A stretch of 64,000 nucleotides of DNA from Pseudomonadales bacterium (GTDB lineage: Bacteria; Pseudomonadota; Gammaproteobacteria; Pseudomonadales; JAHRWD01): assembly GCA_019090315.1 (NCBI GenBank), contig JAHRWD010000087.1:35925-99924 (forward strand), read 5' to 3'. A program made the translations under genes and the position numbers. Under the pieces are notes generated by a model that searched no databases, was not told the DNA's origin, and saw nothing but the letters and a program-made list of their open reading frames with translations. Positions within the stretch are counted from its first letter, which is position 1. Each line of letters begins with the position of its first letter. Of this stretch, positions 4,542 to 26,302 are shown piece after piece.

Positions 4542-4575
4542 CTCAAGTATTTACCAGTCGACAAACACCCGACAA

Positions 4576-5013
4576 TCAGGGTGACCAGTTGCCGATATCG
4601 GCATTCGCATCTTCACCGCCGGACTGGCCATCAGCCCCCAAACTGTAGAGATCAAAGTCACCCTTCTCACCCGGGCTCAAATAGAGATAAGGTCGATTCC
4701 AGGGATCATTTGGCAAGCTTTTGATGTAGCCACCTTTATTCCAGTTTGAAGGCTCCGGGTCGCCACTGGGCTTCTCTACCAGTGCCTCCAGCCCTTGCTC
4801 AGTACTGGGGTATACAAAATTATCGAGCCGATATTGATTCAGCACACCCTCCAGTGACTGAATATCCAACCGTGCTTTGGTAATTCGAGCGGTATCCGGA
4901 CGATCCATAATCCGCGGCACCACTACCGAGGCGAGGATGCCCAGAATCACCACAACCACCATGATTTCGATCAGCGTAAAACCGCCCTGTGTTTTGTTTT
5001 TTCTAGCTCGCAT
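4576..5013 (-). CDS. gspG: Type II secretion major pseudopilin G
   Basis: 145 aa. Leader plus QGGFTLIEIMVVVVILGILA, and a typical GspG body (RLDNFVYPSTEQGLEALV...PWNRPYLYLSPG). Confidence 0.92.
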   Translation of the reverse strand: MRARKNKTQGGFTLIEIMVVVVILGILASVVVPRIMDRPDTARITKARLDIQSLEGVLNQYRLDNFVYPSTEQGLEALVEKPSGDPEPSNWNKGGYIKSLPNDPWNRPYLYLSPGEKGDFDLYSLGADGQSGGEDANADIGNWSP

Positions 5014-5060
5014 ATTGTTTTCTCTTACCTGTTATTCGAAAACCAACGGCGGCAAATCCG

Positions 5061-6335
5061 TTAGCTCACCATCTGATTTAGTTCAAAAATCGGCATCATA
5101 ATGGCCAGTACAATCATCATCACCAGGCCACCCATCAGCAGGATTAATACCGGCTCAAGAATCGCCAAAAATGTGCTTATCCAGCTTTCCAGATCTCGCT
5201 CCTGATTCTCCGCCGCTTTAAATAGCATATCTCCAAGTGCACCGCTGGCTTCACCGCTGGCGATCAGATGCAGCGTCATAGGCGGGAAATAATCGGTTTT
5301 AGTAAGTGCATAGGAGAGGCTGGCACCCTCACGGATACGGCCTGAAGCTTCCTCTATGCTCGCCCGCATCGGGATATTGGATAACACTTCGGAGCTAATT
5401 CGCATCGCATCCAGCATCGGTACGCCACTGGCCAACAGGGTTGCCTGGGTACGGCAAAACACTGCGCAGTTGCTGATTTTCAACCACTGCCCTACTAACG
5501 GAATTTTAAGCATCAACGTATGCCATCGCTGTTTTGGTCCGGGCTTATTCAGAATCCAGCGAACCAGCGCACCCAGCAGTACCAATACGATCAACAGCAC
5601 AAAACCATACACCTGCAGGAAATCGCTGGCGGAGATCAGCACCCTGGTTAACAGGGGCAATTCCTGGTCGATCCCGGCAAACACTTCTATAACCTGGGGT
5701 ACCACGTAGGTCAACATCCCCACCACAACCATCACCGCTACGACCGTTAAAATGATGGGGTACAGCATGGCGTTGGAAACTGTCTGGCGTATTTTTTGAC
5801 CGTTTTCGGTGTAATCAGCCAACCGATCCAGTACCCCCGCCAGATCACCGGACTGCTCGCCGGCTCGTACTGTGGCGACATAATCCTGTTTGAACACTTT
5901 GGGGAAATTTGACATCGCCTGGGCCAAACTTTGGCCTTCCACAACCTGTGCGCGGACACTGGTCATCACCTTTTTGACGCGATCTTTTCCGCTCTGACTG
6001 ACCACCGTAGCGAGTGATTCATCAAGGGGTAGCGCAGCACGGGTAAGGGTCGCGAGCTGTCGTGTTATCAGTGCCAGCTCTTTAATGCTAATGGTGGGAT
6101 TAAACAGGTTTTTCGATTGAGCCTGTTGCTTTTTCTCGCTCTTATCCGCCGCTGGCTGAGTGGAATCCACCGATGTTTTAGTGCGGCGAACTTTACCCAG
6201 TACCTCATGCACCTCCAGCGGTGTCCAGCCTCGGTCCCGTAGCTGTTGGCGTACATGACGAGCGGTATCTCCCTCATCAACGCCCTTCTTTTGGCGTCCC
6301 GATGAATCTAGCGCTACGTAGTGATAAGCCGCCAT
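5061..6335 (-). CDS. gspF: Type II secretion inner-membrane platform protein F
   Basis: 424 aa with a duplicated T2SS-F architecture and three hydrophobic segments. Flanked by gspE and gspG. Confidence 0.9.
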   Translation of the reverse strand: MAAYHYVALDSSGRQKKGVDEGDTARHVRQQLRDRGWTPLEVHEVLGKVRRTKTSVDSTQPAADKSEKKQQAQSKNLFNPTISIKELALITRQLATLTRAALPLDESLATVVSQSGKDRVKKVMTSVRAQVVEGQSLAQAMSNFPKVFKQDYVATVRAGEQSGDLAGVLDRLADYTENGQKIRQTVSNAMLYPIILTVVAVMVVVGMLTYVVPQVIEVFAGIDQELPLLTRVLISASDFLQVYGFVLLIVLVLLGALVRWILNKPGPKQRWHTLMLKIPLVGQWLKISNCAVFCRTQATLLASGVPMLDAMRISSEVLSNIPMRASIEEASGRIREGASLSYALTKTDYFPPMTLHLIASGEASGALGDMLFKAAENQERDLESWISTFLAILEPVLILLMGGLVMMIVLAIMMPIFELNQMVS

Positions 6336-6339
6336 CTAA

Positions 6340-7818
6340 TCAACTTTCCCGGGTCACGCGTATTATTTCGTCAATCGTGGTATCTCCAGACAATACCGAT
6401 GCGGCACCGGAGGTTCGGATGCTTTGGGTTTGCTGTCTGGCAAGTTTTTCCAGCTCGATTTCACCCGCGCCGTTATGAATCGCTTCGCGCATGGTGTTAT
6501 CCACTTCAACCAGTTCAAAAATACCGATTCGGCCTGAAAAACCGGTTTGGTAGCAGTGCTCACAGCCGATAGCCCGGTACAGAGTCGGCGCTGGCACCGA
6601 GTCTGTCTCAAGCAGATCACAGCTAGCCTGATCAGCCTGATAGGGTTCTTTGCAGTGGATACAGAGTTTACGCACCAGCCGCTGCGCCAGCACGCCTAGC
6701 AGGCTCGACGCCAGCATAAAGGGCTCTACACCCATGTCACGAAGCCGGGTCACTGCACCCACGGCGGTATTGGTATGCAGGGTTGAAAGTACAAGGTGAC
6801 CGGTCAAACTGGCCTGTACCGCCACTTCAGCGGTTTCGACGTCCCGGATCTCACCAACCATTACGATATCCGGATCCTGCCGCAATATAGCCCGTAAGCC
6901 ACGGGCAAAATTCATATCAATTTTGGTGTTGACCGCGGTCTGGCTGACCCCATCAATAAAATATTCGACCGGATCCTCAACCGTCATAATGCTACGATCC
7001 GATTGATTCAGCAGCGATAATGCTGAATACAGGGTGGTGCTTTTACCCGAACCGGTTGGCCCGGTGACAAGAAAAACCCCATGGGGATGATGGATTATTT
7101 TGTCCAGACGTTGCCGATCGTGGTCACTCAAACCCAGTGTTTTGAGGTCTAGCCGGCCATTCTCTTTTTCAAGTAGACGCAATACCACCCGTTCGCCGTG
7201 GCCGCTGGGTAGTGTTGAAACCCGCACATCAACCGCGCGACCCGCCAGCCGGAGGGATATTCGCCCATCCTGGGGCAGTCGTTTCTCGGCAATATCAAGT
7301 TTTGCCATTACTTTAATACGGGAGACCACAGGAGAGACCAGCGCTTTTTTAGGTGCCAACATTTCCCGCAACATGCCATCAATGCGGAACCGTACCCGCA
7401 TTCGATTTTCAAATGGTTCGATATGAATATCAGAAGCACCCTGGCGAATCGCTTCACTTAGAATGGCGTTGATCAGGCGAATAATCGGGGCATCGTCATC
7501 GCTTTCCATCAGATCTTCCGGTTCCGGGATCAGCTCGCTGAGATCCTCGAAATCCTGGGTATCTGCGGAAAGACCATCCATCTCCTCCATAACTGCGGAG
7601 GAACCTCCTTCATACTGTTGCTGCAACTGGGCGTTAAAGCGATTGGAATCAACTTTTTCAACCCGCAGAGGAACACCCATAAAGCGCCGTAGTTCAATCA
7701 ACGATATCGGGTCCGAGACTTCCGACTGTATCACCTGCGCATAACCGTCCTGCTGGGCAACCACCAATACGCCGTTACGTTTGGAGAATGCGAAAGGAAT
7801 GTCAGATCGGTGGTTCAT
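6340..7818 (-). CDS. gspE: Type II secretion ATPase E
   Basis: Walker A motif GPTGSGKST. Tetracysteine motif CIHC...CEHC. The Asp/His box region is typical of GspE/PilB ATPases. Confidence 0.95.
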   Translation of the reverse strand: MNHRSDIPFAFSKRNGVLVVAQQDGYAQVIQSEVSDPISLIELRRFMGVPLRVEKVDSNRFNAQLQQQYEGGSSAVMEEMDGLSADTQDFEDLSELIPEPEDLMESDDDAPIIRLINAILSEAIRQGASDIHIEPFENRMRVRFRIDGMLREMLAPKKALVSPVVSRIKVMAKLDIAEKRLPQDGRISLRLAGRAVDVRVSTLPSGHGERVVLRLLEKENGRLDLKTLGLSDHDRQRLDKIIHHPHGVFLVTGPTGSGKSTTLYSALSLLNQSDRSIMTVEDPVEYFIDGVSQTAVNTKIDMNFARGLRAILRQDPDIVMVGEIRDVETAEVAVQASLTGHLVLSTLHTNTAVGAVTRLRDMGVEPFMLASSLLGVLAQRLVRKLCIHCKEPYQADQASCDLLETDSVPAPTLYRAIGCEHCYQTGFSGRIGIFELVEVDNTMREAIHNGAGEIELEKLARQQTQSIRTSGAASVLSGDTTIDEIIRVTRES

Positions 7819-9821
7819 TGCGCTGCGGATTCAGCTGTATCCAGCTCAGATTTGGGATCGGATTCTGGTACAGAATCACTATTTTCATCCTGCTGACGTC
7901 GCAATTTCTGATAATTAAGTTGCTTCCCTGATTCAGGGGTTATCAGCTCAAGTTCAGGCAACAGCGGATATTCAAATGCCGGATCTCGGGTAGGGTCTGA
8001 TTCTTTTCGTTCAAACTGGCGGTTGCGAATCTCCTGATAGTTCGATTGCATAATGGCCCTGCTACCCTCCTGATCCCGGATAATACTAGGACGGAAAAAC
8101 ACCATCATCATTCTCTTCGAAATCTCGGTGCTGGTGCTTCTGAACAGCGCACCGATATAGGGAATTTTGCTGAGGTAAGGTATACCGGATATCGATTCGG
8201 TGACTCGATCATCAATCAATCCACCCAGCGAAACAATTTCACCGTCATCAATCACTACCGTAGTGGTAATCAACCGCTTGTTGGTCACCAGGTCGGATGC
8301 ACCCTCAACCGAAGGGCTCAGGCTTGAAACCTCAAGACTGATCTCAAGCGTCACAACATCTCCTTCATTGATATGGGGCTTAATTTTCAGGGTTAGTCCA
8401 ACATCCTCTCGCTCAATCGTTTGAAAAGGGTTGGTAGAATCAGTACCGCTATCCGTATATGTACCCGTCACAAAGGGTACGTTTTTACCCACCACGATCT
8501 CAGCTTCATTGTTGTCCAGGGTAAAGAGTGAGGGGGTCGAGAGAATATTGGTATCCGCATCGGATTCCAGCGCTTTGAACATCAGTGCAAAATTTTCGCT
8601 AGCACCCAAAAACGTGAGCCCATCCCCGACAATCGGTAATGCTTCGGCTGCCCCGGCAAGTGCACCGCTAATCGAAGTACCGGTATTGGATGAACGACTA
8701 ACAAAGCTACCATGGTCACCAGTGCCCGCCATCTGAACCCCCAAATCCCTGGCTTTAGTGGCATCGAGGTCAACAATAATCGCCTCTACCATCACCTGAG
8801 CTCTACGGATATCGAGTTTTTCAATGATCGACAACAGCGCCTTATGTTGATCCGGACTGGCTGAAATAATCAGTGAATTGGTAGCTTCATCAGCCTGAAT
8901 ATTAGCGGGTGTTACGGTTACGCCTGCTTTTCTATTGCCCTGTTTTATCTTGGCATTGATCGTTTTATCCAGAATCGGTGCCATCTCTTTAGCGATTGCA
9001 TGATTCAAAAAAACCACTCGATCGTTGGTCTTCAGTTCTATCGGTTCATCAAGCTGCTGAATAATCGAACGCATCACCACTCGTTTTGCAGGGTCGCCAG
9101 ATAACAGCACGCTGTTGGTTCTTTCATCCGCCACCGCAAGCACCGCCGCGGCGCCTTTCTCTTTACCCGTCTGCAGGCTCTTCAGCAGTTGTACCACTTT
9201 GGTAGCGCTGGCTTTTTTAAGTTGAACCACTTCTATACTGCTATTAGTCGGCTTATCAATTGACTCAACGATACGCCCAAGCCGAGCAATATTGGCCGCG
9301 GAATCAGAGATGATCAGCGCATTTGCCGGGATATACGCCGCCATATGCCCTTCCTTTGGTACAAGCGGTCTGAGTACCGGTATTAACTTGGCCGCAGAAA
9401 CATGCTCAAGGCGCAGTACTTTTGTGATTTTTTGAGCGCCATCATAATTACTGGAATCGGTTTCGATCGGTATAGAGCTTTGTTTCGCCATATTTTGCGG
9501 AACAATTTTTACGATGCCATCGTTTTCGATAGCCGCATAACCATGCACCTCAAGGATCGATAAAAACACATCGTACAGTGCATCCCCATCCAGCGGGATA
9601 CTCGAAATAACCGTGACTTTGCCCTTCACCCGAGGATCAACCAGGAAGTTCTTTCCGGTCGCTTCACTGATGGTGGCGATCACCGTGCGAATCTCGGCAT
9701 CCACCAAATTGAGGGTGACAGTCTCAGCACTGGCAAAACGTCCGCCTAACATGCAGATCCAGACCATGGTCGCCAACAGGCAACTAAATTTGAATCTCTG
9801 GCGTATAACTCGGTGAATCAT
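7815..9821 (-). CDS. gspD: Type II secretion secretin D
   Basis: Signal peptide begins at MIHRVIRQRFKFSCLL...ASA-ETV. The C-terminal secretin motif is GIPYLSKIPYIGALFR. The start was trimmed from the ORF-track 9935 to the ATG at 9821 that precedes the signal peptide. Confidence 0.92.
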   Translation of the reverse strand: MIHRVIRQRFKFSCLLATMVWICMLGGRFASAETVTLNLVDAEIRTVIATISEATGKNFLVDPRVKGKVTVISSIPLDGDALYDVFLSILEVHGYAAIENDGIVKIVPQNMAKQSSIPIETDSSNYDGAQKITKVLRLEHVSAAKLIPVLRPLVPKEGHMAAYIPANALIISDSAANIARLGRIVESIDKPTNSSIEVVQLKKASATKVVQLLKSLQTGKEKGAAAVLAVADERTNSVLLSGDPAKRVVMRSIIQQLDEPIELKTNDRVVFLNHAIAKEMAPILDKTINAKIKQGNRKAGVTVTPANIQADEATNSLIISASPDQHKALLSIIEKLDIRRAQVMVEAIIVDLDATKARDLGVQMAGTGDHGSFVSRSSNTGTSISGALAGAAEALPIVGDGLTFLGASENFALMFKALESDADTNILSTPSLFTLDNNEAEIVVGKNVPFVTGTYTDSGTDSTNPFQTIEREDVGLTLKIKPHINEGDVVTLEISLEVSSLSPSVEGASDLVTNKRLITTTVVIDDGEIVSLGGLIDDRVTESISGIPYLSKIPYIGALFRSTSTEISKRMMMVFFRPSIIRDQEGSRAIMQSNYQEIRNRQFERKESDPTRDPAFEYPLLPELELITPESGKQLNYQKLRRQQDENSDSVPESDPKSELDTAESAAQ

Positions 9822-9935
9822 AATAAAGCCTTTCAACAACAGGTCGATGGTAACAAAGGTACCGTAATTCGGATTATATTGGGCAGGGAAAAAACCCCGA
9901 TACAGCTTAATTGTAGGCGCAAATCGTTCTTCCAC

Positions 9936-10790
9936 TTATGGGATCGGCAATGAAAGTATGATCGGTTGTCCACCACGCTCTATCTCAACCGTGAGTTCAC
10001 CGCTGGCCACTACATCATCCACCAGATTGTCATCCGCCATAAAATCATTAAGCGTCTTACCGTTAACAGAACGAACCAGATCACCCTCTCTGAGGCCAAC
10101 TCTCTGAAGCATTCTGCTATTTGCGCCACCGGCAAGTCGAAGACCACCGGCCTCATCATCTATAGACAGGCCATATTGGCCAAACGCCTTAACCGGGTCC
10201 TGATAGAAACTATCTTTACTGTTTTTTACCGCCTGCTGGGCAGTTGTCGCTTCCGGGTGATAGGTCAGCATATCTTTCGAGTTTTTCCCATCGCCGTTTT
10301 TACGTTTTTCCGGGAAGCTCAGGGTTTCCAGTCTGCCTGCTCTGCGCAGCAATACGTGATCCGCAAGAATATCCGCTACCACCACGTTCCCTGGCAACTC
10401 ATCTTCTTTTTTGTAGGAGCGCGCCGGTTTCCCCTTTTCTGCGATAAGTGCCCGAGTATCCTTATTGTCTGAACTGATAAAAATACCCCGTAGCTCAAAC
10501 TTAAGACGGGTCTCGGGTGCATCCACAACCGGTTTGGCGGCAACCGGATTTTTCACCAACTGATCATTTCCAAACAGATTGGCCGCAACGATTGTGCGAA
10601 CATTTCCATTCGGCTGTCGCGGTGATTTTTTACTAGTGGGTACCGCAACTATCGGTTGAAACTGACGCTGTGCTCGTTTTTCCGGCCCAGCCGGTTCAAG
10701 CCATTGCCAGATAAATGCACCCGCAAAATACGCAGCGACCACCAACGCCAACCAGACCAGGGAAAAAATCAGGTTCTTTTTAGTCAGCAT
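9936..10790 (-). CDS. gspC: Type II secretion protein C
   Basis: N-terminal TM (LIFSLVWLALVVAAYFAGAFIW). HR-like segment (LKFELRGIFISSDNKDTRALIAEKG...). C-terminal PDZ-like segment (GLREGDLVRSVNGKTLND). Sits directly upstream of gspD. Confidence 0.85.
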   Translation of the reverse strand: MLTKKNLIFSLVWLALVVAAYFAGAFIWQWLEPAGPEKRAQRQFQPIVAVPTSKKSPRQPNGNVRTIVAANLFGNDQLVKNPVAAKPVVDAPETRLKFELRGIFISSDNKDTRALIAEKGKPARSYKKEDELPGNVVVADILADHVLLRRAGRLETLSFPEKRKNGDGKNSKDMLTYHPEATTAQQAVKNSKDSFYQDPVKAFGQYGLSIDDEAGGLRLAGGANSRMLQRVGLREGDLVRSVNGKTLNDFMADDNLVDDVVASGELTVEIERGGQPIILSLPIP

Positions 10791-10924
10791 GGGTTAATGG
10801 TACATTCTGTTTAATTGGTTTTGCGGTAGTCAGCATCATACAGCGATTCAAACTTCGTATAATTCAGCGGGTTCGTGGTCAGCAGTGACCGTTAAGGAGG
10901 CTCTGATTAAGCAACAATCCGTCG

Positions 10925-11668
10925 TCAGTAGATCTTTCGTTTAATTTCCATCACATTTCCAGCCCGATTGAGACGGCGGTTTGGCAACAGAATAAGGTTG
11001 CCCATCTCCTGCTTTACCTCAACACCTAGCCAGCCATCAGGCTGAAGCCTGATCACACTAATCGGCTCGCTCATTCCATGTTTGACAACATTCAGTACCA
11101 GCGTGCCCTCTGAAGCGGACAACAGGCCCGTCAGCTCAGGCATTTGAACCGTTTTCGTACCCGATGAAGTATAGCTTACGCGGCCACCCTTCCATATTAC
11201 AGCCCCGCCAGCATCGGAAAATTGAGTATCGTTCATGGAAACCGACAGGGATTCAACCACGATATCCTGATTGATGCGGATACCAAACTCGGCCAGCTGA
11301 CGATTCACCAGATCCTTACTGATCTTCCCGTTTACCTGAACCCTGCCGCTCGCTTCACCCTCGGCATCCGCTTTAATCCACAGATCGTGGTCAGCATCAT
11401 GAACATGAAGGACCAATCCGTACCCACCAAAGAGCCTACCAATTGGTGCAAGTTCCCAATTGACCGTGCTTTTCAATGACCCATCGGTAATGGTTGATTG
11501 CCCGCTCCATACAGAACCCTCAACCTCACCGATCATTTCTGCTAGTTTTGGAGGCAACTGCGAGCGCAGCCTTTCAAATGCAATTGATGCAGGGAAATTG
11601 GCCAGCAGACCGGCAGAAAAAGCCACCGCGACCGAAAAAGCGCATATCAGCCAGTGCTTTCTATCCAT
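10925..11668 (-). CDS. gspN: Type II secretion protein N-like
   Basis: N-terminal TM, then a pattern typical of the GspN family (GEVEGSVWSGQSTI...VNWELAPIGRLFGGYGL). Starts at the internal ATG MDRKHW; the ORF-track start at 11704 is a TTG. The position upstream of gspC is atypical. Confidence 0.55.
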   Translation of the reverse strand: MDRKHWLICAFSVAVAFSAGLLANFPASIAFERLRSQLPPKLAEMIGEVEGSVWSGQSTITDGSLKSTVNWELAPIGRLFGGYGLVLHVHDADHDLWIKADAEGEASGRVQVNGKISKDLVNRQLAEFGIRINQDIVVESLSVSMNDTQFSDAGGAVIWKGGRVSYTSSGTKTVQMPELTGLLSASEGTLVLNVVKHGMSEPISVIRLQPDGWLGVEVKQEMGNLILLPNRRLNRAGNVMEIKRKIY

Positions 11669-11832
11669 GTTTACAGCTATTAAAATTTGGTTTTTCCATA
11701 CCAAAGAGTATACAACGAGAACCCCGTTGTTGCGTATCCTCCGTCGCTCAATCGGTCATGGAATACCCTAGCCGCCACATTCATCGCTGGAACAACCCTG
11801 ATATAAATATCTATCGGTACTAAGTCTGAGCG

Positions 11833-16335: not shown

Positions 16336-17135
16336 GGGGTCAGACTCGATTGATTTAACCCTTCCGGTAGCTTTCCGACTTTCGATCCCCTCCCCTTAGC
16401 CTTGGGGACACGGGTCGCTTTAATTTTCGCTCGATTTCATCCTTAAAGTGGCTGCTCCCCAGCACCCAGGCTTTATTGGTTGATTCCCTTATTTCCGTTA
16501 ACGTTTTCTCAGCAATACGAGCTTTGAACAAGGCTCTGTACGCACTCTGTCGTTCTTCCGGGGTTTTGCCCAGTTTTATGTATTCTGGATGAGGTACCAC
16601 CAGGGGATCTGGTTCTCCCACCGCATTGTGGCGATAACTCGACCAGGGGTATTCAGAGGGGTGATCTACCATATCCTCTGCACGAACCGGGTTTAACTCA
16701 ATATATCGATAACAGGTCAGCAGGTAGCGTTCCGAGTCAATCAATGTGGCTTTGTAACGGCCTTCCCAGAGAGTGCCGGTACGTTGGTAGGTATGATTAA
16801 AATACTGGACATAATAACGCCCGAGCATTTGAAGCGATTTGCTGATCCCATCTTCGGTACGGGGAGTCATCAGCAGATGAACATGATTTGTCATCAGTAC
16901 GTAGGCATGAAGGTCGCACTGGTGTTTTTCGCAAGCTTGTTCGAGTTTTTCCAGGTAAAAGCGATAATCCTCTTCTCCATAGAAAATAGGTTCGCGGTTA
17001 TTGCCTCGCACGATTACATGCTGAGGCTGACCGGGAATGACAAAACGGGGGAGACGAGCCATGGCTTAATCTTCGAAATGAGAGACGCGGGTAGCGTACT
17101 CGACGGGACGGATAAAATCAATCGAGTCTGACCCC
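16336..17135 (-). mobile_element. RAYT unit: REP-associated tyrosine transposase gene flanked by a perfect 19-bp inverted repeat
   Basis: Left arm ggggtcagactcgattgat (16336-16354). Right arm atcaatcgagtctgacccc (17117-17135). The two are exact reverse complements and bracket the IS200/Y1-like ORF. Confidence 0.85.
16355..17062 (-). CDS. REP-associated tyrosine transposase (IS200/IS605 Y1-like, RAYT)
   Basis: 235 aa. The N-terminus MARLPRFVIPGQPQHVIVRGNNREPIF and the HUH-type motif LMTNHVHLLMTP match the COG1943/RAYT family. Confidence 0.88.
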   Translation of the reverse strand: MARLPRFVIPGQPQHVIVRGNNREPIFYGEEDYRFYLEKLEQACEKHQCDLHAYVLMTNHVHLLMTPRTEDGISKSLQMLGRYYVQYFNHTYQRTGTLWEGRYKATLIDSERYLLTCYRYIELNPVRAEDMVDHPSEYPWSSYRHNAVGEPDPLVVPHPEYIKLGKTPEERQSAYRALFKARIAEKTLTEIRESTNKAWVLGSSHFKDEIERKLKRPVSPRLRGGDRKSESYRKG

Positions 17136-17627
17136 ATTGACTCCACATAAACCTTGACTTTCAGCCATGTCTATCCAGTTAGCAGTCATATAGTTTGAAT
17201 ATTCTCCTTTCTGAAGATCCACCAATGCACAAATTGCATCCATATAGTTATTCGATGCGGCTCCCTCTAGATATTGAATAGATAGAGAGGGTGATCGAAC
17301 ATATCTGAAGCTCCCCTCCAACATAAAACTGGCAACTAAGTATTGCGCCTCTGAAAACCCACCATCAGCGCTTTTTAAGTACCATCTTTTCGATTGAATA
17401 TAGTCTTTGCCTATGCCTTTACCCCAGAAGAAAGCCTCGCCTAACAAATATTGTGCTTCGTGATCTCCTTCTTTCGAAGCTAATATAATACCTCCAATCT
17501 TTGAATAATCACCGCTTCGAAAAAGAAATTTTGCGATCTCAGCCTCATCTGCCCCTCCTCCTAGTGAGAATTGACTAAAACACAACACAGAGAGCAATAC
17601 ATAAAGAAGAATCATCTTATTGGTCAT
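17118..17627 (-). CDS. Sel1-repeat periplasmic protein, candidate immunity protein for the upstream RHS toxin
   Basis: Signal peptide MTNKMILLYVLLSVLCFSQFSLG. Sel1-like repeats are present (EAQYLLGEAFFWGKGIGKDYIQSKRWYLKSADGGFSEAQYLVA). Its ATG lies inside the last codons of the toxin gene (11-nt overlap, 17617-17627). Confidence 0.7.
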   Translation of the reverse strand: MTNKMILLYVLLSVLCFSQFSLGGGADEAEIAKFLFRSGDYSKIGGIILASKEGDHEAQYLLGEAFFWGKGIGKDYIQSKRWYLKSADGGFSEAQYLVASFMLEGSFRYVRSPSLSIQYLEGAASNNYMDAICALVDLQKGEYSNYMTANWIDMAESQGLCGVNGVRLD

Positions 17628-20600
17628 AGTTGTATTTCTCCAGAATTGGCGTATGCATACCTTCATACTTATTCTTGAAAAGGGGTGTAACAACAAAAGG
17701 TTTCGTTACTAAAACTGGGATATTGTAATTTGGAAACCTAGGGTCCTGCACTTGAGTTCCACCATAAGGACGTTGTTGGTTGTCCCAAGAGTACGCATTG
17801 CCATATCCCTCATTACTAGGGGCATATACTTCTATATCTAATGGCTCAGCCCAGAAACCATCACTGTTTTGATACGTAACTGAGCAAGTATAGTAACAGT
17901 GCTTTCTGCCCATTTTTGCCCCTTTGGGAATTCTTTCCAGATTATATTGTTCATAACTACAGGCTTTTTGACTGACAGATTCGCATATAGCAGCGAACGA
18001 CTTAGCTGAAGCTTCCTCATCCCCATGCCCAGGCATAGAATCATTCAAAATATAACTAAACGCTCCAGTTACCGCCCCATTCCCAAATTTACCCCCACTC
18101 AAAACTGATGCAGTACCACCAACAACGGAAGACACAATTACTCCCCCTGGCGAAGGCCCCTGCCCGGCGGGGCCCGTCAAATTCATATTTCCAGCCATGG
18201 CTGTAAACCCTGCCGCAGCAAACCCATGCCCAAACTTCCCACCCTGCAATTCGGCCATTATACCGCCAGTCATACCGTGGGCAGCCACTCGCTGCCACGG
18301 GTGTAAGCCCTCAATACCCCCTATCACATAAAACGCGGCCGAACTTACACCTGCAATCGCAGCCGAACGATATGCAGCCGTAAAACTCCCTGTCTGAGCA
18401 TATGTCATATTCATACTAAATTGGGCGTTAAAGCCAATTGAACATGGACCACAGTACGCAGTACTCACAGCGGTTCCAACAATTTGCGCAAATTGCGCTA
18501 ACGCTGGATTTTTACCCAGATATTTATACAACGGCTTCTGTAATTTCGCATCAATACGTGATGCCACCCACAACGAAAAGAAATACCCACTAGGATCCGT
18601 ATAAGCCAGCGGATTATTGATCACGTATGTATACCGGTTATAACTCTGGCTATTACCCGGCGCCTGTATAAACGGATCCGCCTGCAGTACCCGGCCTAAT
18701 GAGGGGTCATAGATCCGCCCGTTCATATGGATGAGGCCCATTTCGTCGAGCTGTTCGTGGCCGGTATAACCCCTTGTGGTGACTCTGTTCTCCGCGATAA
18801 AGTCGGTGGCGATTTCGGTCGCATCCAGTACATTCCAGTTACTGGCGCGGCGGCGTTTTCCCCAGGCATCAAAGCTGAGGTCTGTTGTTGCACCACTGCT
18901 ATCAACGATCACATCAATCGAACCCTGCTGATCTTTGAAGATGTATTGAATTTCACCGGCGGAGCCGTTCCCGGCACTGGTGATGATCATGGCACCGAGG
19001 TTACTACGATATTTGACGCTCTCGTTGGGGCGGTCTATTTTTTCAACATTACCCAGATACAGGGTGGTGGTTTGGCCACCAACCGCATCATCCACCCGTT
19101 TGTAGCGACTACGGCTTGCACCGTAGTAAAAGGTGGTTGTGTGATCATTGCCTTTTTTGGCTTCGACCAATTTATCGAAGCTGTTGTAGGAAAGTGAACG
19201 GCCGTTACCGGCTGTCTGGTTGCCGTTGGCATCGTAGCTGTAGGTGGTACCTCCGGCATTGGTAACGGCATGGGGGCCGGCATTATTAGCACCGTAGGTA
19301 TAGTCGCCAATATCAGATTTATTGGTGATATTGCCACCCGCGTCATAATCAACGGTGGTGGTCTTGTAGATACTGCTTTCCGACCCTGGCGCGTAGGTCC
19401 GTACTTCTTCAAGGCGATTCAGCTCATCATAGTCGAACGCCTCAAACATGTTTTTGGTACCACTGTGGTCCCTTCTTGTTTTCAAGTTACCGATCTCATC
19501 GTAGCTGAATAATAGATCCTGTACGTCACCGTTATCGGTATTGATAGAGAGGATGCGACCGGTATCGGGCTGATAAGCACGAGTGGTGATCATGCCATTA
19601 CCGGCACGAAATTCGGTGATCTGGCCCGCAGCATTAACGGCCATCACCTCATGAATGGTTTTGCCGCTAATAACGTCCCAGCTGCGCTCCAGATAGCCAT
19701 AGTCATTGTATTTATTGCGAATTTCCCGACCATCGGCACCGGTTTTTGAGGCTATTTGATTGGTGCCGGGCTTAAAGGTGGAGCTGGCCAGATATGGAAT
19801 CCCATCAATGGCGGTGGTTGAGCCATTCGGCCGGCCGTATTGATCGTAGACAATCTCGTTTTTGTAGCCATCCAGTGTGTTTTCAACGTAGTCCAGTTGA
19901 CCCAGGCCATTGGCAGCAGAGTCGTATACCCACACACTGTCTTCATCTGCACTGATCCGGGTTTTCATGCGGCCAAGAACATCGTAGGTCATGGTGGTGA
20001 CCTGTCCTTTGGCATTGGTTTGGGTAACCAGCTCGCCCAGGGCATTGTATGTATATTTCCAATGGCCTTTATCCGGGTCATCCATGATGGTTTTTCGACC
20101 GAGAAGATCGTAGACCATTTCGATGATCTGGCCATCGGCACCTGTTACCTTTATGAGGTTGCCAGCGGCATCATAGGTATTAGTGAGCACTCCAAGCTTC
20201 GCATCGATTACGCGGACGGTCTCACCCAGTGCATTAGTAATCTCTGTTCTGGTTTGCCCCAGTGCGTTGGTTGTGGTGGTTTCGTAGCCGTTGTAGCTAA
20301 TGCTGGAGGCACTCTCATCAGGCAGTGTGACGCGAATAACTCGACCAAACGGATCATGCTGGGTTTTTGTCCAGTATATGGTGCTCGCACCTGCGACGTA
20401 GGGGCTGGAAATTTTGGCAACCCTGCCGACTGCATCGTAGTAGGTGTCGGACTGGATGGTTTCACCGTTAAACCCCAGCTTGCTTTTGCGAACCTCTCGC
20501 CCCAGCACATCAAAATACTGAATGCTTTTTTGACCTGTGCTGCTGGTTTGTATGCTGAGATAAACAGCCTGAAGCGGACAGGTTTCCACAGCGTTTTCGC

Positions 20601-23600
20601 AAAGCAGGTGTTGGTTACTTACGCTGACGCCAATGTTACTGGTGGTACTGGTAGTACGGCCCCACGCATCGTAACGAGTACTGATCTGGTTACCATTGAT
20701 CAGATTGGCCTCTGTGGTACGGCCAAACGTATCACGATCGGTAACGGTTTCCAGCACGTGGCCCATACTGTTGTAGCGCTCTTTTACGAAACGGTGGTCG
20801 TCATCATCCATTCGCACCCCGCTTGTTCGGGTAGTGATATCAGTGCTGGTATCCATGGCACTCTGGTCACCGCTTACCGTAGTACTTGTACGCTGGCCGT
20901 AAACATCATGCCCATACTCGGTAGTCAGTGTTCGACCAATACCTCCATCGGGTTCTATGATCTCTTTATTGAGAATACGTGTGATGGAATCGTAATCGAA
21001 TTTCGCTGTGCGTGGGATGGTAGTTTGACCAGGGCGTTCATGTTGTACGGTTGCTTTCTCCAGGCGACCAAGATGCCATATACCATTAATTCCAGTTGAA
21101 ACATGGTTGACGTACTCATTATTCGTAGTCGTACTGCTCACCGGGGAACCCTGGGCATCTCGTATTTCAACCTTTATCATACTCAGATTGGCGTAGTTCT
21201 TATCCTCGCCATCATCGTAGGTGTTGGTCGTCGTTACACTACCCAGTAGTTCACCACTAACAGAGTCATAGCTCGTTTCTACGCTGTTGGCGATGTAGGG
21301 ATAAATCGCTTCACCAGCGGTGCTATTTTGTTGCCATTCGTTATCCGCAACGCTCAGCAGGGTATCGGTATCAAGATGGTATTTAACGGTTTGCAGGGGC
21401 ATACCGGCGAAGGGGAAATCTTGCCGATAACGGGTATCCACCAGCACACCGGACTGTGGGTCGTAGGTGGTGAGGTATTCAAAACCCAGTGATCCCCTGC
21501 CACCGGCCTGTATTCGCAGCCCCTGATAGAAGTACTCCATTTCTGCCATATGATCCGAATCGGTTTCGGTTGGCGCACTGCTGCTAACCCGTGAAACCAC
21601 GTACATTGGGCTGTTAAGGTCAAATACCGGCGAGCCATTGCCCCAATCAAATTCACTGGCACCATGGCCAGGGGTATAGATCAGATCCTGATCATTGGTG
21701 AGGGTAGTGTAGTCAATTTCAGTTTTGGCACCCAAACCGTTGGTGATGCGATGGATTAGATCCTGGGGGGTGCGGTCAAAGCGATTGAAGTAGATAGTAT
21801 AGTTATTTTGATCGATATTTGCCGCGAGGAGGTCAGCATAGCTGTCGCCATCGATATCTAGAAAAGCCATCGTATGGTCGGGATTGATGAGGCGCCAATC
21901 ACCAATACTTGGACCAACTAGCATTGCCGCCCCATAACCACGACCGTTCCAATAACGCACGCAAAGAGCCTGCTGGTCGTTATAGTTGCAGATTTGCACC
22001 AGATCAGACATTCGATCGCCGTTTAAATCAGCGAACTGCATTTTTTTTGGTTTGCTGATCTTACCCACACTCATCGCATCCTCAAAGGAGCTACCTAAAC
22101 CATAGGGAGTTCCATTGTTGAGTCGATAAAACCATTCATCACCGATCTTGCTAAAAATATCGGTCAGGCCATCACTATTAATATCAATCAGCCGAAAGTT
22201 CTCAGCATTCTCATCCACCGGGAGAAGAGCTGCGATTTCAGTTTCCGCTGAGGACATATGGGTAAAGCGTGTGGGGTAGGTCGAATCATCGGTTGGATCA
22301 ACCGTCAGCAATATCCATTTTTTTGAATAGGTAGTTTCAATCAGCTCGGTGCGTATTACCTTTAAAAGAAGATCGACCCGGCCATCACCATTCAGATCCA
22401 TCGGTGGGTGTTTTTTAAAATCAGCCTTTATATTGCCTCCTGCACCCTCCACGGTAATAAGCTCCAGCTTTTGTTCCTTACCATAAGAATAGGGTTGATC
22501 GGCGCTCCAGCTACTGTTTTTCTTCAGATACCGAATACGAATATCGTTGTCACCGGAGTGATACAACATATCTACAAGGCCATCACCATTTAGATCGCTG
22601 AAGATTGCTTTTGAACTGCTGGTTGAGGGGACCCCTATATCGATAGCGCTGCTAGAGAGCGTCGCCCCGTTAGACAGGTGTACCTTCCAACGGCTACCGG
22701 TGGCATAAACCAGATCCTGATAGCCGTCATTGTTGTAGTCAATCACGTGCCATGCTTCGCGGGCTTGGCTGAATGCTCTTACGCTAAAACTGGATTTTAC
22801 CAACGAGGTGCCGTCCGAGTAGGAAAGCCTGAAGCGATATTCGTCACCATTGTGATAAAGCCATAACCAGTCCTGCTTGCCATCGCCGTTAACATCAATG
22901 GTCTGCCCACCAAGGTAGGATTTCTGCACACCAAATTCACCTGTTACTTGATCACCCTGAAGTACGCGGTCGGGCTCATGCCAGTTAAATTTGGTTGCCG
23001 GAAGGCAGTTCGTGTCACTCACACACTCCTGTACGCTACGCAGTAAGTTTCGCTGAGTGCCTTTGCTAAGCCCGTAACGCAGGTTGTATTGGCGAAATAG
23101 ATCGCTACCTTCACGCACCTCAATTGAGTCTAGCCGCCTACTGACAGTGTTTTTGGAACCTAGCCCATAGAAAATATTGGTATCTGATCGGGTATTGCTG
23201 TACTTAAATTTAATTGAGGCGTTAGGGGAGTCAGTGCTGTCGTGACCGGTATATTTCACCTGATCGATACGAAAATCACCATCGGTATCTGCTAGGTATT
23301 GGTACAGCATGTAGTTTCCGGCGCTGTCGGAAAATTTATTTTGGGCCCAGTAATTTACGATACTGCCAACACTCAGGCTGGATACTACCGCGGAGTCAGT
23401 GCTGTTACCGTATTCTGAAATGGAACCGTCTTTACGCCATACTTTAAAATAGAGCTTACCGGTTGCGGAGGTAACGGATCTCACCCGCAGGGATTGGTCA
23501 ATCTCGGTTCGATATTCATTGCCCGCCTCACCATATTCATTACTACCCGCTACCTTAACCAGGCGTGCACCATCCAGACAGAAGCGATCTTCATCATCAA

Positions 23601-25284
23601 GCATTACGGTACGATTGCGTAGGTCCGCCTCATAGCTTTGCCTACAACGAGAGATACTGGATAGACCACCCACAGACCAACCCACACCGGCGTAACCATT
23701 ACCGGCACCGCTGTTGTAGTTAAGGCTCATCTGCGGCGTGACGCCACCCAGCCCGGGCAGGTCTGCAATGGCAATGGCGTACCCGGCAGCACCCTGTTGG
23801 TCGACACGGAAACTGCCACCGGTACTACCGACTTCACTGGAAGAAACTGGGCCTACATCATTTATTCCGTTAACTTCCCCATCAACGAGCACCGACACTG
23901 CGTCATCGGTATAGCACTGTTCTGTTTTAGGCGAATCCCACTGATTGATCCACCAACAATGTTTAATTCTATAGTGGTACTCACCATCAGGTTGATTATT
24001 GATCATATGAGAGGTTGCGCTTGAGCTTTTTAATCGCACATGCCACTCGCCCGAACCGACACGCTCCTGTAATTCAAAATACCTCAAATCACTACCAAAA
24101 ACGGCAAAAACGGCCCCATTCGGTATCACCCAGGAGATGTTATATGCGCCACCTTGAACAACATCGGCGGGCACACTGATAGAAAAATGATCACCTGCGA
24201 TGGGTGAATCGGTGACAGTAAGGTTCTGCGATTCCACCAGCACCGAGGCGGCTGGGCTAGGCGCACTGCAAAGACCATTTACATCACAAACTCGCACCCG
24301 ATAGTAATAAATACCGTTGCTGCGCCCCGTTGCTGTGTACTTCCGACTAGAATCATTCTGCCGTATCGTCCATGTGCCATCGATTCCGTTGCGTTCTTCA
24401 AGTTGGTACATCATATTAGCCGTAGGAGAAACGGACCACGAAAGTTCATAGGATGGGCTATTGCTTATGGCAGGGGCTTGAATGCCACTGAGAGGAGAAG
24501 GTGCTCGCAAATCTATGACAGTGTGCTCTGAGATTTCGGTGCAGTTCATCACGAAATTGTCTTCCAGGCTTGCAGGATACCCACAAGCTAATAAACGGTA
24601 GCGGTAATAGCCTTTAATGGACTGATCGGATATGTTGTAAGTTTGAGCTTGGTATTCGCTGGTGTAACCCTCAAACAAACTAGTCCATTCACCCGATTCG
24701 GTTTCCACCTGCAACAAATAGTTAATGCGTGGTCGCGAAGTCCAGCCCAAGTTATAGTTTCCGTCGGTAGTGGTACTTTGGTGGCTCTTTTCCAGGCTAT
24801 TAATATTACGTAACACCCCGTTTTCCGGGGCAGGCGTGACTGGACCGTCGGCGGGATCGGCTACCGTTACATATATACCAGAACCATTGTAAGGGCATGG
24901 ATCGTAAAGGAGACATCCGTGTAGCCTATATTCATATATACCGGGCCCCTTACCTGTAACCGAATAACTAGATGTTGGAGGTACACCCTGAACCAATGTT
25001 ACCCAACTGCCTGAACTATTACGCGTTTGCAAAGACACGTACAAGCCAGCACCTGCCCAGCTCAATGTATAGCTGCCATTGTTATTCACATCTGCAGTTG
25101 CAATATGTCGCTTGGAGTTTGGCGTTGGGTTTGCGGTAAACTCGTCGTAGCTCAAATAATTAATTGTGGGCAGATCAGAAGGCACCGTCATGGCAACAGC
25201 CTGAGCGGTATACAAAAATGAGGTAAGGAAGCAGAAGTAATAAAAAGCGAGGGGGATTTGGCGGCGTGCGAAATGACGAATCAT
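17617..25284 (-). CDS. Secreted SpvB/FG-GAP/RHS-repeat polymorphic toxin (Tc-toxin BC-like fusion), 2555 aa
   Basis: - Sec-type signal peptide (FYYFCFLTSFLYTAQAVA).
- Four modules of about 95 aa, each ending G-x-Y-x-Y-R-x-x-x-C.
- SpvB-type segment (GGSFRVDQQGAAGYAIAIADLPGLGGVTPQMSLNYNSG).
- Seven FG-GAP/VCBS-like DxNGDGxxD loops.
- Long YD/RHS repeat run.
- RHS core ending GRIYDPSLGRVLQADP...NPLAYTDPSGY.
- A C-terminal region of about 320 aa follows. Confidence 0.9.
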   Translation of the reverse strand: MIRHFARRQIPLAFYYFCFLTSFLYTAQAVAMTVPSDLPTINYLSYDEFTANPTPNSKRHIATADVNNNGSYTLSWAGAGLYVSLQTRNSSGSWVTLVQGVPPTSSYSVTGKGPGIYEYRLHGCLLYDPCPYNGSGIYVTVADPADGPVTPAPENGVLRNINSLEKSHQSTTTDGNYNLGWTSRPRINYLLQVETESGEWTSLFEGYTSEYQAQTYNISDQSIKGYYRYRLLACGYPASLEDNFVMNCTEISEHTVIDLRAPSPLSGIQAPAISNSPSYELSWSVSPTANMMYQLEERNGIDGTWTIRQNDSSRKYTATGRSNGIYYYRVRVCDVNGLCSAPSPAASVLVESQNLTVTDSPIAGDHFSISVPADVVQGGAYNISWVIPNGAVFAVFGSDLRYFELQERVGSGEWHVRLKSSSATSHMINNQPDGEYHYRIKHCWWINQWDSPKTEQCYTDDAVSVLVDGEVNGINDVGPVSSSEVGSTGGSFRVDQQGAAGYAIAIADLPGLGGVTPQMSLNYNSGAGNGYAGVGWSVGGLSSISRCRQSYEADLRNRTVMLDDEDRFCLDGARLVKVAGSNEYGEAGNEYRTEIDQSLRVRSVTSATGKLYFKVWRKDGSISEYGNSTDSAVVSSLSVGSIVNYWAQNKFSDSAGNYMLYQYLADTDGDFRIDQVKYTGHDSTDSPNASIKFKYSNTRSDTNIFYGLGSKNTVSRRLDSIEVREGSDLFRQYNLRYGLSKGTQRNLLRSVQECVSDTNCLPATKFNWHEPDRVLQGDQVTGEFGVQKSYLGGQTIDVNGDGKQDWLWLYHNGDEYRFRLSYSDGTSLVKSSFSVRAFSQAREAWHVIDYNNDGYQDLVYATGSRWKVHLSNGATLSSSAIDIGVPSTSSSKAIFSDLNGDGLVDMLYHSGDNDIRIRYLKKNSSWSADQPYSYGKEQKLELITVEGAGGNIKADFKKHPPMDLNGDGRVDLLLKVIRTELIETTYSKKWILLTVDPTDDSTYPTRFTHMSSAETEIAALLPVDENAENFRLIDINSDGLTDIFSKIGDEWFYRLNNGTPYGLGSSFEDAMSVGKISKPKKMQFADLNGDRMSDLVQICNYNDQQALCVRYWNGRGYGAAMLVGPSIGDWRLINPDHTMAFLDIDGDSYADLLAANIDQNNYTIYFNRFDRTPQDLIHRITNGLGAKTEIDYTTLTNDQDLIYTPGHGASEFDWGNGSPVFDLNSPMYVVSRVSSSAPTETDSDHMAEMEYFYQGLRIQAGGRGSLGFEYLTTYDPQSGVLVDTRYRQDFPFAGMPLQTVKYHLDTDTLLSVADNEWQQNSTAGEAIYPYIANSVETSYDSVSGELLGSVTTTNTYDDGEDKNYANLSMIKVEIRDAQGSPVSSTTTNNEYVNHVSTGINGIWHLGRLEKATVQHERPGQTTIPRTAKFDYDSITRILNKEIIEPDGGIGRTLTTEYGHDVYGQRTSTTVSGDQSAMDTSTDITTRTSGVRMDDDDHRFVKERYNSMGHVLETVTDRDTFGRTTEANLINGNQISTRYDAWGRTTSTTSNIGVSVSNQHLLCENAVETCPLQAVYLSIQTSSTGQKSIQYFDVLGREVRKSKLGFNGETIQSDTYYDAVGRVAKISSPYVAGASTIYWTKTQHDPFGRVIRVTLPDESASSISYNGYETTTTNALGQTRTEITNALGETVRVIDAKLGVLTNTYDAAGNLIKVTGADGQIIEMVYDLLGRKTIMDDPDKGHWKYTYNALGELVTQTNAKGQVTTMTYDVLGRMKTRISADEDSVWVYDSAANGLGQLDYVENTLDGYKNEIVYDQYGRPNGSTTAIDGIPYLASSTFKPGTNQIASKTGADGREIRNKYNDYGYLERSWDVISGKTIHEVMAVNAAGQITEFRAGNGMITTRAYQPDTGRILSINTDNGDVQDLLFSYDEIGNLKTRRDHSGTKNMFEAFDYDELNRLEEVRTYAPGSESSIYKTTTVDYDAGGNITNKSDIGDYTYGANNAGPHAVTNAGGTTYSYDANGNQTAGNGRSLSYNSFDKLVEAKKGNDHTTTFYYGASRSRYKRVDDAVGGQTTTLYLGNVEKIDRPNESVKYRSNLGAMIITSAGNGSAGEIQYIFKDQQGSIDVIVDSSGATTDLSFDAWGKRRRASNWNVLDATEIATDFIAENRVTTRGYTGHEQLDEMGLIHMNGRIYDPSLGRVLQADPFIQAPGNSQSYNRYTYVINNPLAYTDPSGYFFSLWVASRIDAKLQKPLYKYLGKNPALAQFAQIVGTAVSTAYCGPCSIGFNAQFSMNMTYAQTGSFTAAYRSAAIAGVSSAAFYVIGGIEGLHPWQRVAAHGMTGGIMAELQGGKFGHGFAAAGFTAMAGNMNLTGPAGQGPSPGGVIVSSVVGGTASVLSGGKFGNGAVTGAFSYILNDSMPGHGDEEASAKSFAAICESVSQKACSYEQYNLERIPKGAKMGRKHCYYTCSVTYQNSDGFWAEPLDIEVYAPSNEGYGNAYSWDNQQRPYGGTQVQDPRFPNYNIPVLVTKPFVVTPLFKNKYEGMHTPILEKYNYDQ

Positions 25285-25645: not shown

Positions 25646-26302
25646 ATGATGTTACAAGGATCAGTTTCAGCAACATCCAGGTACATAATGTTAGCGGCGT
25701 TGGCGCTCTGTTTCGGACTGTTTTTATCGTATCTATTGCGTGATATAGGTAAGTCAGCCCCGCCACCCATAGCGCTCCCCTCGTCTTCAACTGGTCAATC
25801 CATTTCTGATAGCAGACCACGGCTGGATCAAAACACCGCCTCGGAAATCGCCACTACCGGCCCTGCCCCAGATCCAGCACCCAGTCCAGTACAAACGGTT
25901 GTTGAGACCAATTCGCTACGTTTGACTCTGGAGGGAGTGTTTTTAGCTTCTGACCCGAAAAAAGCCACCGCGATGATTCGTAATTCCGACGGTCTCAGCA
26001 AGCTGTATTACGTTGGTGAAGTGCTAGCCGAGCAAGTGGTGCTTGATGCGATCAACCGAAATTATGTAGTGGTATTACAGGATGGCAAGACGATACGACT
26101 CGGCATCAATACAAACCGTACTGGTGACCCCAGCCCGGCGAATAACAACTCACTGCCGACGGCCTATCAAGCTGCTACCGCTCGGGACTCGGGAAACAAT
26201 GAGGAATACAGCGACGACACATCACGCTTAAGCAAACAGCAGGTGATGAACAGATTGCAGACCCTTCGTCAGGACAATTTCGGTAGAACCCCATCGGATT
26301 GA
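25646..26302 (+). CDS. GspC-like protein with TM plus HR domain only (no PDZ)
   Basis: GGAG lies 5 nt upstream of the ATG, and there is an N-terminal TM (IMLAALALCFGLFLSYLL). The segment LRLTLEGVFLASDPKKATAMIRNSDGLSKLYYVGEVLAEQVVLDAI..VVVLQDGKTIRL aligns by eye with the HR region of the in-window GspC (LKFELRGIFISSDNKDTRALIAEKGKPARSYKKEDELPGNVVVADI..VLLRRAGRLETL). Confidence 0.6.
   Translation: MMLQGSVSATSRYIMLAALALCFGLFLSYLLRDIGKSAPPPIALPSSSTGQSISDSRPRLDQNTASEIATTGPAPDPAPSPVQTVVETNSLRLTLEGVFLASDPKKATAMIRNSDGLSKLYYVGEVLAEQVVLDAINRNYVVVLQDGKTIRLGINTNRTGDPSPANNNSLPTAYQAATARDSGNNEEYSDDTSRLSKQQVMNRLQTLRQDNFGRTPSD

Follow-up and report, generated by a model that had tools for sequence, protein, structure and literature searches.

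The window, a 64-kb stretch (64,000 nucleotides) of a Pseudomonadales contig, carries a giant gene of the RHS polymorphic-toxin type and, directly downstream on the same strand, a small gene for a Sel1-repeat protein; our subject is the 140-residue C-terminal tail of the RHS protein and its pairing with that small gene (Table 1). By exact-sequence look-up, the RHS protein is MBV1915817.1, annotated as a 'VCBS repeat-containing protein' in a metagenome-assembled genome of a Pseudomonadales bacterium, and an identical protein is present on an ENA metagenome scaffold. Its N-terminus, judged from sequence composition, has three Lys or Arg within the first nine residues, followed by a hydrophobic core. 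Ahead of SpvB, residues ~40-490 (window ~23815-25165, minus strand) appear to form four repeats of ~105 residues, each closing with a G.Y.YR...C pattern (GIYEYRLHGC, GYYRYRLLAC, GIYYYRVRVC and GEYHYRIKHC), for which the Pfam scan returned no family.

Table 1. Features of the RHS locus and its flank, with positions counted in the window
Feature	Residues	Position	Strand	Basis
Whole RHS polymorphic-toxin gene	2555 aa + stop	17617..25284	-	Open reading frame list
Sec-type signal peptide	~1-30	25195..25284	-	Read from sequence: MIRHFARRQ / hydrophobic core / AQA-VA
TcB-like part: SpvB, FG-GAP beta-propeller, TcdB_toxin_midN	496-703, from ~849, 1137-1289	21418..23799	-	Pfam
RHS/YD-repeat shell	~1577-2229	18598..20556	-	Pfam RHS_repeat 1.3e-26 (above threshold), DUF6443
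RHS core-end motif DPSGY, inside NNPLAYTDPSGY	2230-2234	18583..18597	-	Position in sequence; conserved in homologues
Gly/Ala-rich DUF637/PT637-like pre-toxin module (181 aa), ending GGKFGNGAVTGAFSYILND	2235-2415	18040..18582	-	Homologues and weak Pfam match
C-terminal tail domain (140 aa)	2416-2555	17620..18039	-	Starts directly after SYILND
Candidate immunity gene: Sel1-repeat protein with predicted signal peptide (MTNKMILLYVLLSVLCFSQFSLG), MBV1915816.1	169 aa	17118..17627	-	Pfam Sel1 2.9e-12
IS200-like Y1 transposase gene, directly downstream of the cassette		16355..17062	-	Pfam Y1_Tnp 6.9e-16

The domain content of the carrier places it among known toxins. Pfam recognises SpvB (4e-18), FG-GAP_3 (3e-16) and TcdB_toxin_midN (1.2e-12), so that an RHS/YD shell is combined with a signal peptide, SpvB and an FG-GAP propeller, and the C-terminus appears polymorphic, with a candidate immunity gene adjacent to it. 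Zhang et al. 2012 (PMC3482391) described the TcdB/TcaC trafficking class, in which a signal peptide is followed by SpvB and by an integrin-like propeller combined with RHS repeats, and from its sequence the carrier reads as a regular polymorphic RHS toxin of that class with a DUF637-like pre-toxin. The TcdB/TcaC toxins (PMC3482391) and the TcB-TcC cocoons of ABC toxins have the same domain order, a DPxG(L/Y) core end and a hypervariable payload, and genomes related to the window likewise carry orphan C-terminal cassettes. The window differs from both in that its payload falls outside the listed toxin families, no TcA partner is found and the partner gene encodes a predicted periplasmic Sel1 protein. 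It differs further from TcdB/TcaC in having a DUF637-like pre-toxin between shell and toxin; the PT637 pre-toxin is described in PMC3482391 and listed there as typical of the type V secretion system and CdiA.

Between the DPSGY motif and the tail lies the Gly-rich hydrophobic segment that the sequence-only reading had pointed out. This module is moderately hydrophobic and basic, with 16.6% Gly, 15.5% Ala and a grand average of hydropathy (GRAVY) of +0.35. Its match to Pfam DUF637 (PF04830; E 0.0094, 16.2 bits) is below the 26.6-bit gathering threshold, and it is best called DUF637-like or a distant relative. Searching with the module returned 84 homologues (P0003-P0086), 14 of which reach DUF637 at E<=0.001; the named sources are mostly marine Gammaproteobacteria (Microbulbifer, Pseudoalteromonas, Pseudidiomarina, Aliikangiella and Alteromonas). 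Nearly all 84 end in GGKF(A/G)NGA(V/I)TGAFSxxxN(D/H) (window 18040-18096, minus strand) and continue into unrelated tails of ~150-200 residues. About 80 different cargo tails follow this motif, mostly unannotated; those with a Pfam assignment comprise Peptidase_M23 (2), M15, CHAP, Tlde1, eCIS_core, lipase-like Mbeg1, Tox-REase-9 and PT-HINT, and further tails show HExxH or GxSxG motifs by eye. The end of the module thus acts like an exchange junction, comparable to the VENN demarcation of CdiA. The CdiA pre-toxin region (DUF637/PT637 with PT-VENN) likewise joins a Gly-rich conserved segment, a short end motif and swapped toxins; in our protein the demarcation is GGKFxNGAxTGAFSxxxN(D/H) instead of VENN, and the carrier is an RHS protein rather than a two-partner-secretion filament.

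The same break is visible in the closest full-length relatives. Two Microbulbifer SpvB-RHS proteins share 42-47% identity with the window protein through the end of the shell, DPSGY and the Gly-rich module, and none past the junction of module and tail. Because the tails of the module homologues and the Microbulbifer similarity both break at this junction, we regard the tail as occupying an exchangeable payload slot. In the Microbulbifer loci (L035, 1-10702; L036, 609-10891) the SpvB-RHS genes are followed by small open reading frames (ORFs) and by orphan cassettes made of shell end, Gly-rich module and tail, one of which encodes Tlde1. By their layout these appear to be the classical RHS orphan arrays of the lineage; there is no orphan array at the RHS locus of the window. 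Effectors of the Tlde1, CHAP, Peptidase_M23 and Peptidase_M15 types occupy the same slot behind the module, have a similar size (about 150-190 aa) and are extracytoplasmic; the tail shares no sequence similarity with them, lacks their catalytic motifs and has no conserved Cys-His or His/Asp metal site.

The tail starts essentially where the sequence-only reading had placed it. The span drawn there (17620-18046) contains the sequence as quoted, and only its end was one base out of frame: the last 142 residues, beginning NDS, are encoded by 17620-18045 and read NDSMPGHGDEEASAKSFAAICESVSQKACSYEQY...KHCYYTCSVTYQNSDGFW...YNYDQ. The description of the tail as Cys-rich holds modestly, with four Cys (tail positions 19, 27, 48 and 52) amounting to 2.9 per 100 residues against 0.9 in the whole RHS protein. 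No toxin family or motif had been recognised in it at that stage, and library searches agree: the tail and its two relatives, introduced below, have no Pfam, NCBIfam, PHROGs or PADLOC family, and neither the single tail sequence nor a three-sequence profile found anything among PDB sequences at E<=10. The CYYTC stretch gave one NCBIfam zinc-finger match, but at E 0.049 and 13.6 bits, with the cut-off at 60, it was sub-threshold and was rejected as chance, as was a BLAST resemblance (E about 5) of the DPRFPNYN...KPF motif to the RHS core end 'YDPRLGRF..ADPF'. Double-psi beta-barrel/RlpA-type, phospholipase A2, ricin QxW and Walker-A motifs compared by eye did not fit in spacing or residues.

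Relatives of the tail are extremely few. Run exhaustively against 1.84 billion cluster representatives of ~15 billion proteins, phmmer returned two, P0001 (140 aa, E 9.2e-18, 47% identity to the tail) and P0002 (174 aa, E 3.2e-4, 36% identity). The tail sequence on its own found nothing in a word-indexed search covering 5.8 billion proteins, and the three-sequence profile run against 5.8 billion 90%-identity clusters recovered both relatives and nothing further; tails of long RHS proteins may hide behind differently tailed representatives in a 50%-clustered library, for which the 90%-level profile search partly compensates. Nothing was found by DNA-pattern scans with the tail or its profile in GTDB genomes, JGI metagenomes and IMG/VR, or by tblastn against plasmids, nor is there a second copy in the 64-kb window. 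A search that started from the Sel1 partner gave 31 metagenome loci with Sel1 relatives, in which six-frame hmmsearch with the toxin profile detected no new member; the two best of these loci proved on inspection to encode generic long multi-repeat Sel1 proteins. The family profile also found no distant relative among the tails of all 84 module homologues (best E 0.9). The tail therefore appears to be one of a three-member family with no detectable relationship to described families, and its status as a new toxin domain, as first proposed, is supported by the absence of any library, PDB sequence or fold match and by its position at the junction where 84 module homologues switch tails.

The search for the domain on other scaffolds thus yielded one orphan RHS C-terminus and one stand-alone lipoprotein. 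P0001 begins with an RHS core-end remnant (NTYTYVLNSPIRFIDVFGL) that leads directly into the domain without any Gly-rich module, with only ~120 residues after the motif, and it appears to be an orphan RHS C-terminal cassette. In its locus (L002 1425-2124) the cassette lies near a Gp49/HTH_37 (HigB/HigA-like) pair and a gene for an NA37 nucleoid-associated protein, surroundings that suggest a mobile or accessory island. P0002 (L003 4473-4997) is a stand-alone lipoprotein with the signal …LLVGAC from a high-GC genome; its neighbours are genes for a Ser/Thr kinase and a lipoprotein of the metallo-beta-lactamase fold, and no Sel1 or immunity-like gene is nearby.

The gene downstream of the tail had been put forward as a signal-peptide-bearing immunity candidate, and its properties fit that role. 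Its ATG overlaps the RHS stop by 11 nt (ATGACCAATAA), its product matches Sel1-repeat structures in the PDB sequence search, and hydropathy gives it a hydrophobic, signal-like N-terminus; the Sel1 repeats, the position directly downstream and a predicted export that matches the proposed target compartment are thus all present. The P0001 stop is likewise overlapped by a gene whose 162-residue product has Sel1 repeats and a hydrophobic N-terminus resembling the signal of an exported protein or lipoprotein, and the two Sel1 partners are collinear (E 2e-16, 36% identity over the repeats, 29% overall). Since P0001 lacks the Gly-rich module and keeps its Sel1 partner, it is the tail that the Sel1 gene accompanies, rather than the module or the shell. 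A linkage kept despite such divergence (47% identity for the toxin, 36% for the partner) is, as far as sequences can tell, the signature of a toxin/immunity pair. In Klebsiella pneumoniae, Sel1E is a Sel1-repeat immunity protein against VgrG4 (DUF2345 domain) and was modelled on Pseudomonas aeruginosa PA5087 (PMC7108748). Sel1E and PA5087 (PDB 5jkp) resemble the window protein as small Sel1-repeat proteins directly downstream of a toxin and presumed to neutralise it by binding; at our locus the toxin is unrelated, delivery would be by Sec/RHS and not by a type VI secretion system, and the Sel1 protein, at 169 aa with about 2-3 repeats, is much shorter. PA5087 is not among the PDB sequence matches of the window Sel1 protein at E<=0.001. 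PA5087 protects against the phospholipase PldB.

Base composition sets the same two genes apart. The tail has a G+C fraction of 0.413 (0.35 at third codon positions, GC3) and the Sel1 gene 0.404 (GC3 0.355), against 0.499 (GC3 0.425) in the Gly-rich segment and 0.493 (GC3 0.51) elsewhere in the RHS gene, and the AT content of tail and Sel1 gene together is reached by fewer than 1% of 933-nt windows across the 64 kb. Hand counts made earlier (23/60 G+C at 17641-17700, 29/60 at 20581-20640) were exact, and the swapped toxin/immunity cassette proposed from them gains from the finding that the low-GC block consists of the tail plus the Sel1 gene, a pairing that recurs at the distant, unrelated orphan locus of P0001. 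Tail and Sel1 gene form a compositionally foreign block, probably acquired horizontally. At its distal end the block stops at the IS200-like transposase gene, where G+C returns to 0.49, and the transposase might be linked to the arrival of the cassette. Two other stretches of the window, ~45180-45930 and ~60960-61110, are similarly AT-rich (G+C about 0.39-0.41); the ORF at 43886-45229 adjoining the first has no Pfam family in the Pfam scan.

From this evidence we consider that the tail probably founds a new family of polymorphic-toxin domains, which would act outside the cytoplasm and be neutralised by the periplasmic Sel1 immunity protein. It could be argued instead that the Gly-rich, glycine-zipper-like module is the real toxin, a membrane-inserting pore former to which the tail is an accessory, for instance a receptor-binding or regulatory part. 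Glycine-zipper pore-forming effectors such as Tse4 are known; the module is hydrophobic (19-residue Kyte-Doolittle windows up to 1.46 beside its positive GRAVY), one of its homologues matches Pfam Gly-zipper_YMGG and another Gly-zipper_Omp, and some homologous ORFs end shortly after the module. Those short ORFs, however, lie mostly on tiny contigs and are probably truncated, the module is the conserved part and stands ahead of self-sufficient enzymes (M23, CHAP, Tlde1 and nucleases), P0001 has the tail straight after the RHS motif and retains the Sel1 partner with no module at all, and the low-GC cassette begins at the tail, the module being intermediate in GC3, so that this alternative seems improbable. 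The tail, for its part, is not a pore former because it is hydrophilic (GRAVY -0.78); its highest 19-residue hydropathy is 0.76, and it contains no hydrophobic or amphipathic membrane-inserting segment, the upstream module being the hydrophobic part.

Comparison of the three members of the tail family narrows the kinds of activity that need to be considered. Invariant are C2434, Y2444, P2453, G2455, A2456, G2459, K2461, C2463, Y2465, C2467, V2486, G2495, Y2498, W2500, N2502, Q2504, D2514, P2515, F2517, P2518, N2521, P2529 and F2530, with no invariant His, Glu, Ser or Arg, and in the alignment the P0001 domain has no His at all. Chemistry that depends on His or on a conserved Glu is ruled out for the family because neither residue is invariant and P0001 is His-free. 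With no invariant His and no Pfam match, the Cys-His dyad or triad of papain-like, NlpC-P60 and Tae amidase toxins is absent; the HNH, HExxH metallopeptidase, secreted phospholipase A2 and deaminase His motifs are absent as well, there being no invariant His or Glu and no Pfam or NCBIfam match. The conservation pattern also excludes the usual RNase or ADP-ribosyltransferase centres as the family mechanism. K2461, Y2498, W2500, N2502, Q2504, D2514 and N2521 resemble a site that binds a glycan or ligand, or one with a single carboxylate, more than a classical nuclease, protease, lipase or ADP-ribosyltransferase centre. Our guess, a tentative one, is that the tail acts on peptidoglycan or a different glycan of the envelope, or blocks such a target.

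The Cys residues suggest a fold stabilised by disulfides. The aligned domain has 4 Cys in the window, 8 in P0002 and 9 in P0001 (8-9 within 120-140 aa in the two relatives), with three Cys columns invariant, and the window tail lacks four Cys common to both relatives and carries one compensating position. Because the loss is even-numbered and the count stays even, disulfides are favoured over a catalytic thiol or a metal site; the pattern of 4, 8 and 9 fits disulfides, an argument that the four Cys of the window copy would not make on their own and that is convincing only when the relatives are compared. Given the alignment of the three sequences, AlphaFold2 models the tail as largely beta, ending in a helix (predicted local distance difference test, pLDDT, 60.9; predicted template-modelling score, pTM, 0.52), and P0001 was modelled at pLDDT 47.5. 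The Foldseek comparison suggested earlier found no match for this low-confidence tail model in the PDB or BFVD.

The same residues allow a reading in which nothing is poisoned, the tail being a lectin- or adhesin-like domain that binds or has a structural role outside the cell and ends the RHS protein by chance. The conserved residues include none of a catalytic type, those that are invariant (Tyr, Trp, Asn, Gln and Asp) would suit ligand binding, and P0002 is an ordinary-looking lipoprotein among housekeeping genes. Against this, the tail fills the payload slot behind an RHS release motif and a pre-toxin junction, the cassette of foreign composition includes a tightly coupled partner gene, and the pairing of tail and Sel1 is kept in the orphan module; we therefore rate a non-toxic tail as very improbable.

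For a toxic tail, the compartment of action can be approached through export. Judged from sequence, export signals are present in the RHS protein, in both Sel1 proteins and in P0002 (a lipoprotein), so that the two tail-domain members with known N-termini are both exported. The export signals, the periplasmic partner, the even loss of Cys and the lack of room for an inner-membrane entry domain in P0001 together support action in the envelope or periplasm, in line with the original proposal of a target outside the cytoplasm, which had been made from paired Cys and the signal-peptide-bearing neighbour; exported members, signal-peptide Sel1 partners and Cys lost four at a time all point that way. 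The other cargoes of the module, many of them cell-wall enzymes and some nucleases, leave the compartment unsettled, and they raise the alternative of a cytoplasm-acting toxin (an unusual nuclease, or a translation or metabolic poison) that would cross the inner membrane by means of the module while Sel1 acts only during export. The same module does bear PD-(D/E)xK nuclease tails (Tox-REase-9 and the REase-like P0013 and P0025), and DUF637 regions stand ahead of cytoplasm-acting CdiA C-terminal toxins (PMC3482391). But both Sel1 partners have signal peptides and so would not reside where a cytoplasmic target lies, Cys disappear in fours and every member of known N-terminus is exported, P0001 with its ~120 residues after the RHS motif has no space for an entry domain, and the tail family has no conserved His or Glu and no nuclease motif. 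We give a cytoplasmic target little credence.

How an envelope-acting tail would be delivered is a separate matter. Export of the RHS protein through Sec is likely from its N-terminus, and release through the type II secretion system (T2SS) is possible, the window containing a complete T2SS operon (gspC-N, 292-11704); that the DUF637-like module helps in crossing the outer membrane of the target cell is speculation by analogy with CdiA. A second, shorter GspC-like ORF (25646-26299, plus strand, Pfam T2SSC 8.7e-15) lies divergently beside the RHS gene, the canonical gspC being inside the operon at 9939-10790 (minus strand). An extra GspC beside a giant signal-peptide protein could be a dedicated substrate-recognition factor, or a coincidence.

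The architecture of the carrier also invites comparison with Tc toxins. The tail would then be directed against eukaryotes, as the effector of a Tc-toxin-like BC cocoon that targets a host or grazer, and the Sel1 protein would be a co-secreted virulence or assembly factor rather than an immunity protein. Fused TcB-TcC components have the order SpvB, FG-GAP, TcdB_midN and RHS as well, Sel1-repeat proteins that are secreted often serve in host interaction (PMC7108748), and P0002 has no immunity neighbour. Yet a TcA-like translocator is absent from the window, a tightly overlapping Sel1 gene and its being kept in the orphan C-terminal module are toxin/immunity hallmarks, sister modules bear antibacterial peptidoglycan hydrolases and Tlde1, and the orphan C-terminal arrays of the Microbulbifer relatives are typical of interbacterial systems. 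An anti-eukaryotic role thus has a low probability in our judgement.

Under the interpretation we prefer, of an interbacterial toxin acting in the envelope, the RHS shell would fold after Sec export, cleave at DPSGY and retain the C-terminal region. Autoproteolysis at the core-end motif is known for RHS/TcC proteins, and by analogy DPSGY would be the release site ahead of the C-terminal region. The released tail would be a largely beta domain, held by two disulfides where the relatives have four, that damages the envelope or a periplasmic target of competing bacteria, and the periplasmic Sel1-repeat protein would bind it one-to-one and protect the producer.

Several points weigh against this interpretation. 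Toxicity, neutralisation, cleavage and compartment are all steps that we infer, and the glycan-directed guess, itself tentative, is drawn from residue types only. The pairing of tail and Sel1 is seen at only two loci, which one ancestral cassette could explain. P0002 has neither a Sel1 neighbour nor a polymorphic-toxin scaffold, so the domain is not exclusive to toxin contexts. The Gly-rich module, which also bears nuclease-type tails, is uninformative on the compartment. No entry route into the target cell is evident, since the window has a T2SS only and no type VI secretion system, CdiB or TcA-like gene. Finally, the AlphaFold2 model of the tail is weak (its pLDDT comes from one of five models), the fold and the disulfide pairing being predictions, and the lack of a fold match carries little weight.

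We also considered a bolder version of the same interpretation, possible if somewhat doubtful, in which the tail is a new fold that kills from the periplasm: disulfide-locked and His-independent, it would poison an essential envelope process and be countered by a minimal Sel1 protein of two to three repeats. Such a domain might bind and block its target, perhaps a precursor of the cell wall or a machine for outer-membrane assembly, or might carry out single-carboxylate chemistry on a glycan, and P0002 could then be a non-toxic ancestor or a housekeeping version of the binding module.

The overall RHS toxin/immunity layout is already known, and unassigned C-terminal toxin domains are common in such systems; what appears to be new here is the payload, a three-member family without recognisable relatives or conventional catalytic residues. 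For now the tail is one further unassigned toxin domain among many. As tools for annotating the cargo in a lineage of SpvB-type RHS proteins from marine Gammaproteobacteria, the junction GGKFxNGAxTGAFSxxxND and the catalogue of about 80 tails are of practical use. The C-termini of polymorphic toxins have already yielded new enzymatic activities and antibacterial targets, and this tail, nearly absent from public sequence data, lacking the usual His/Glu chemistry and coming with a ready-made candidate inhibitor, may reveal a new vulnerability of the bacterial envelope.

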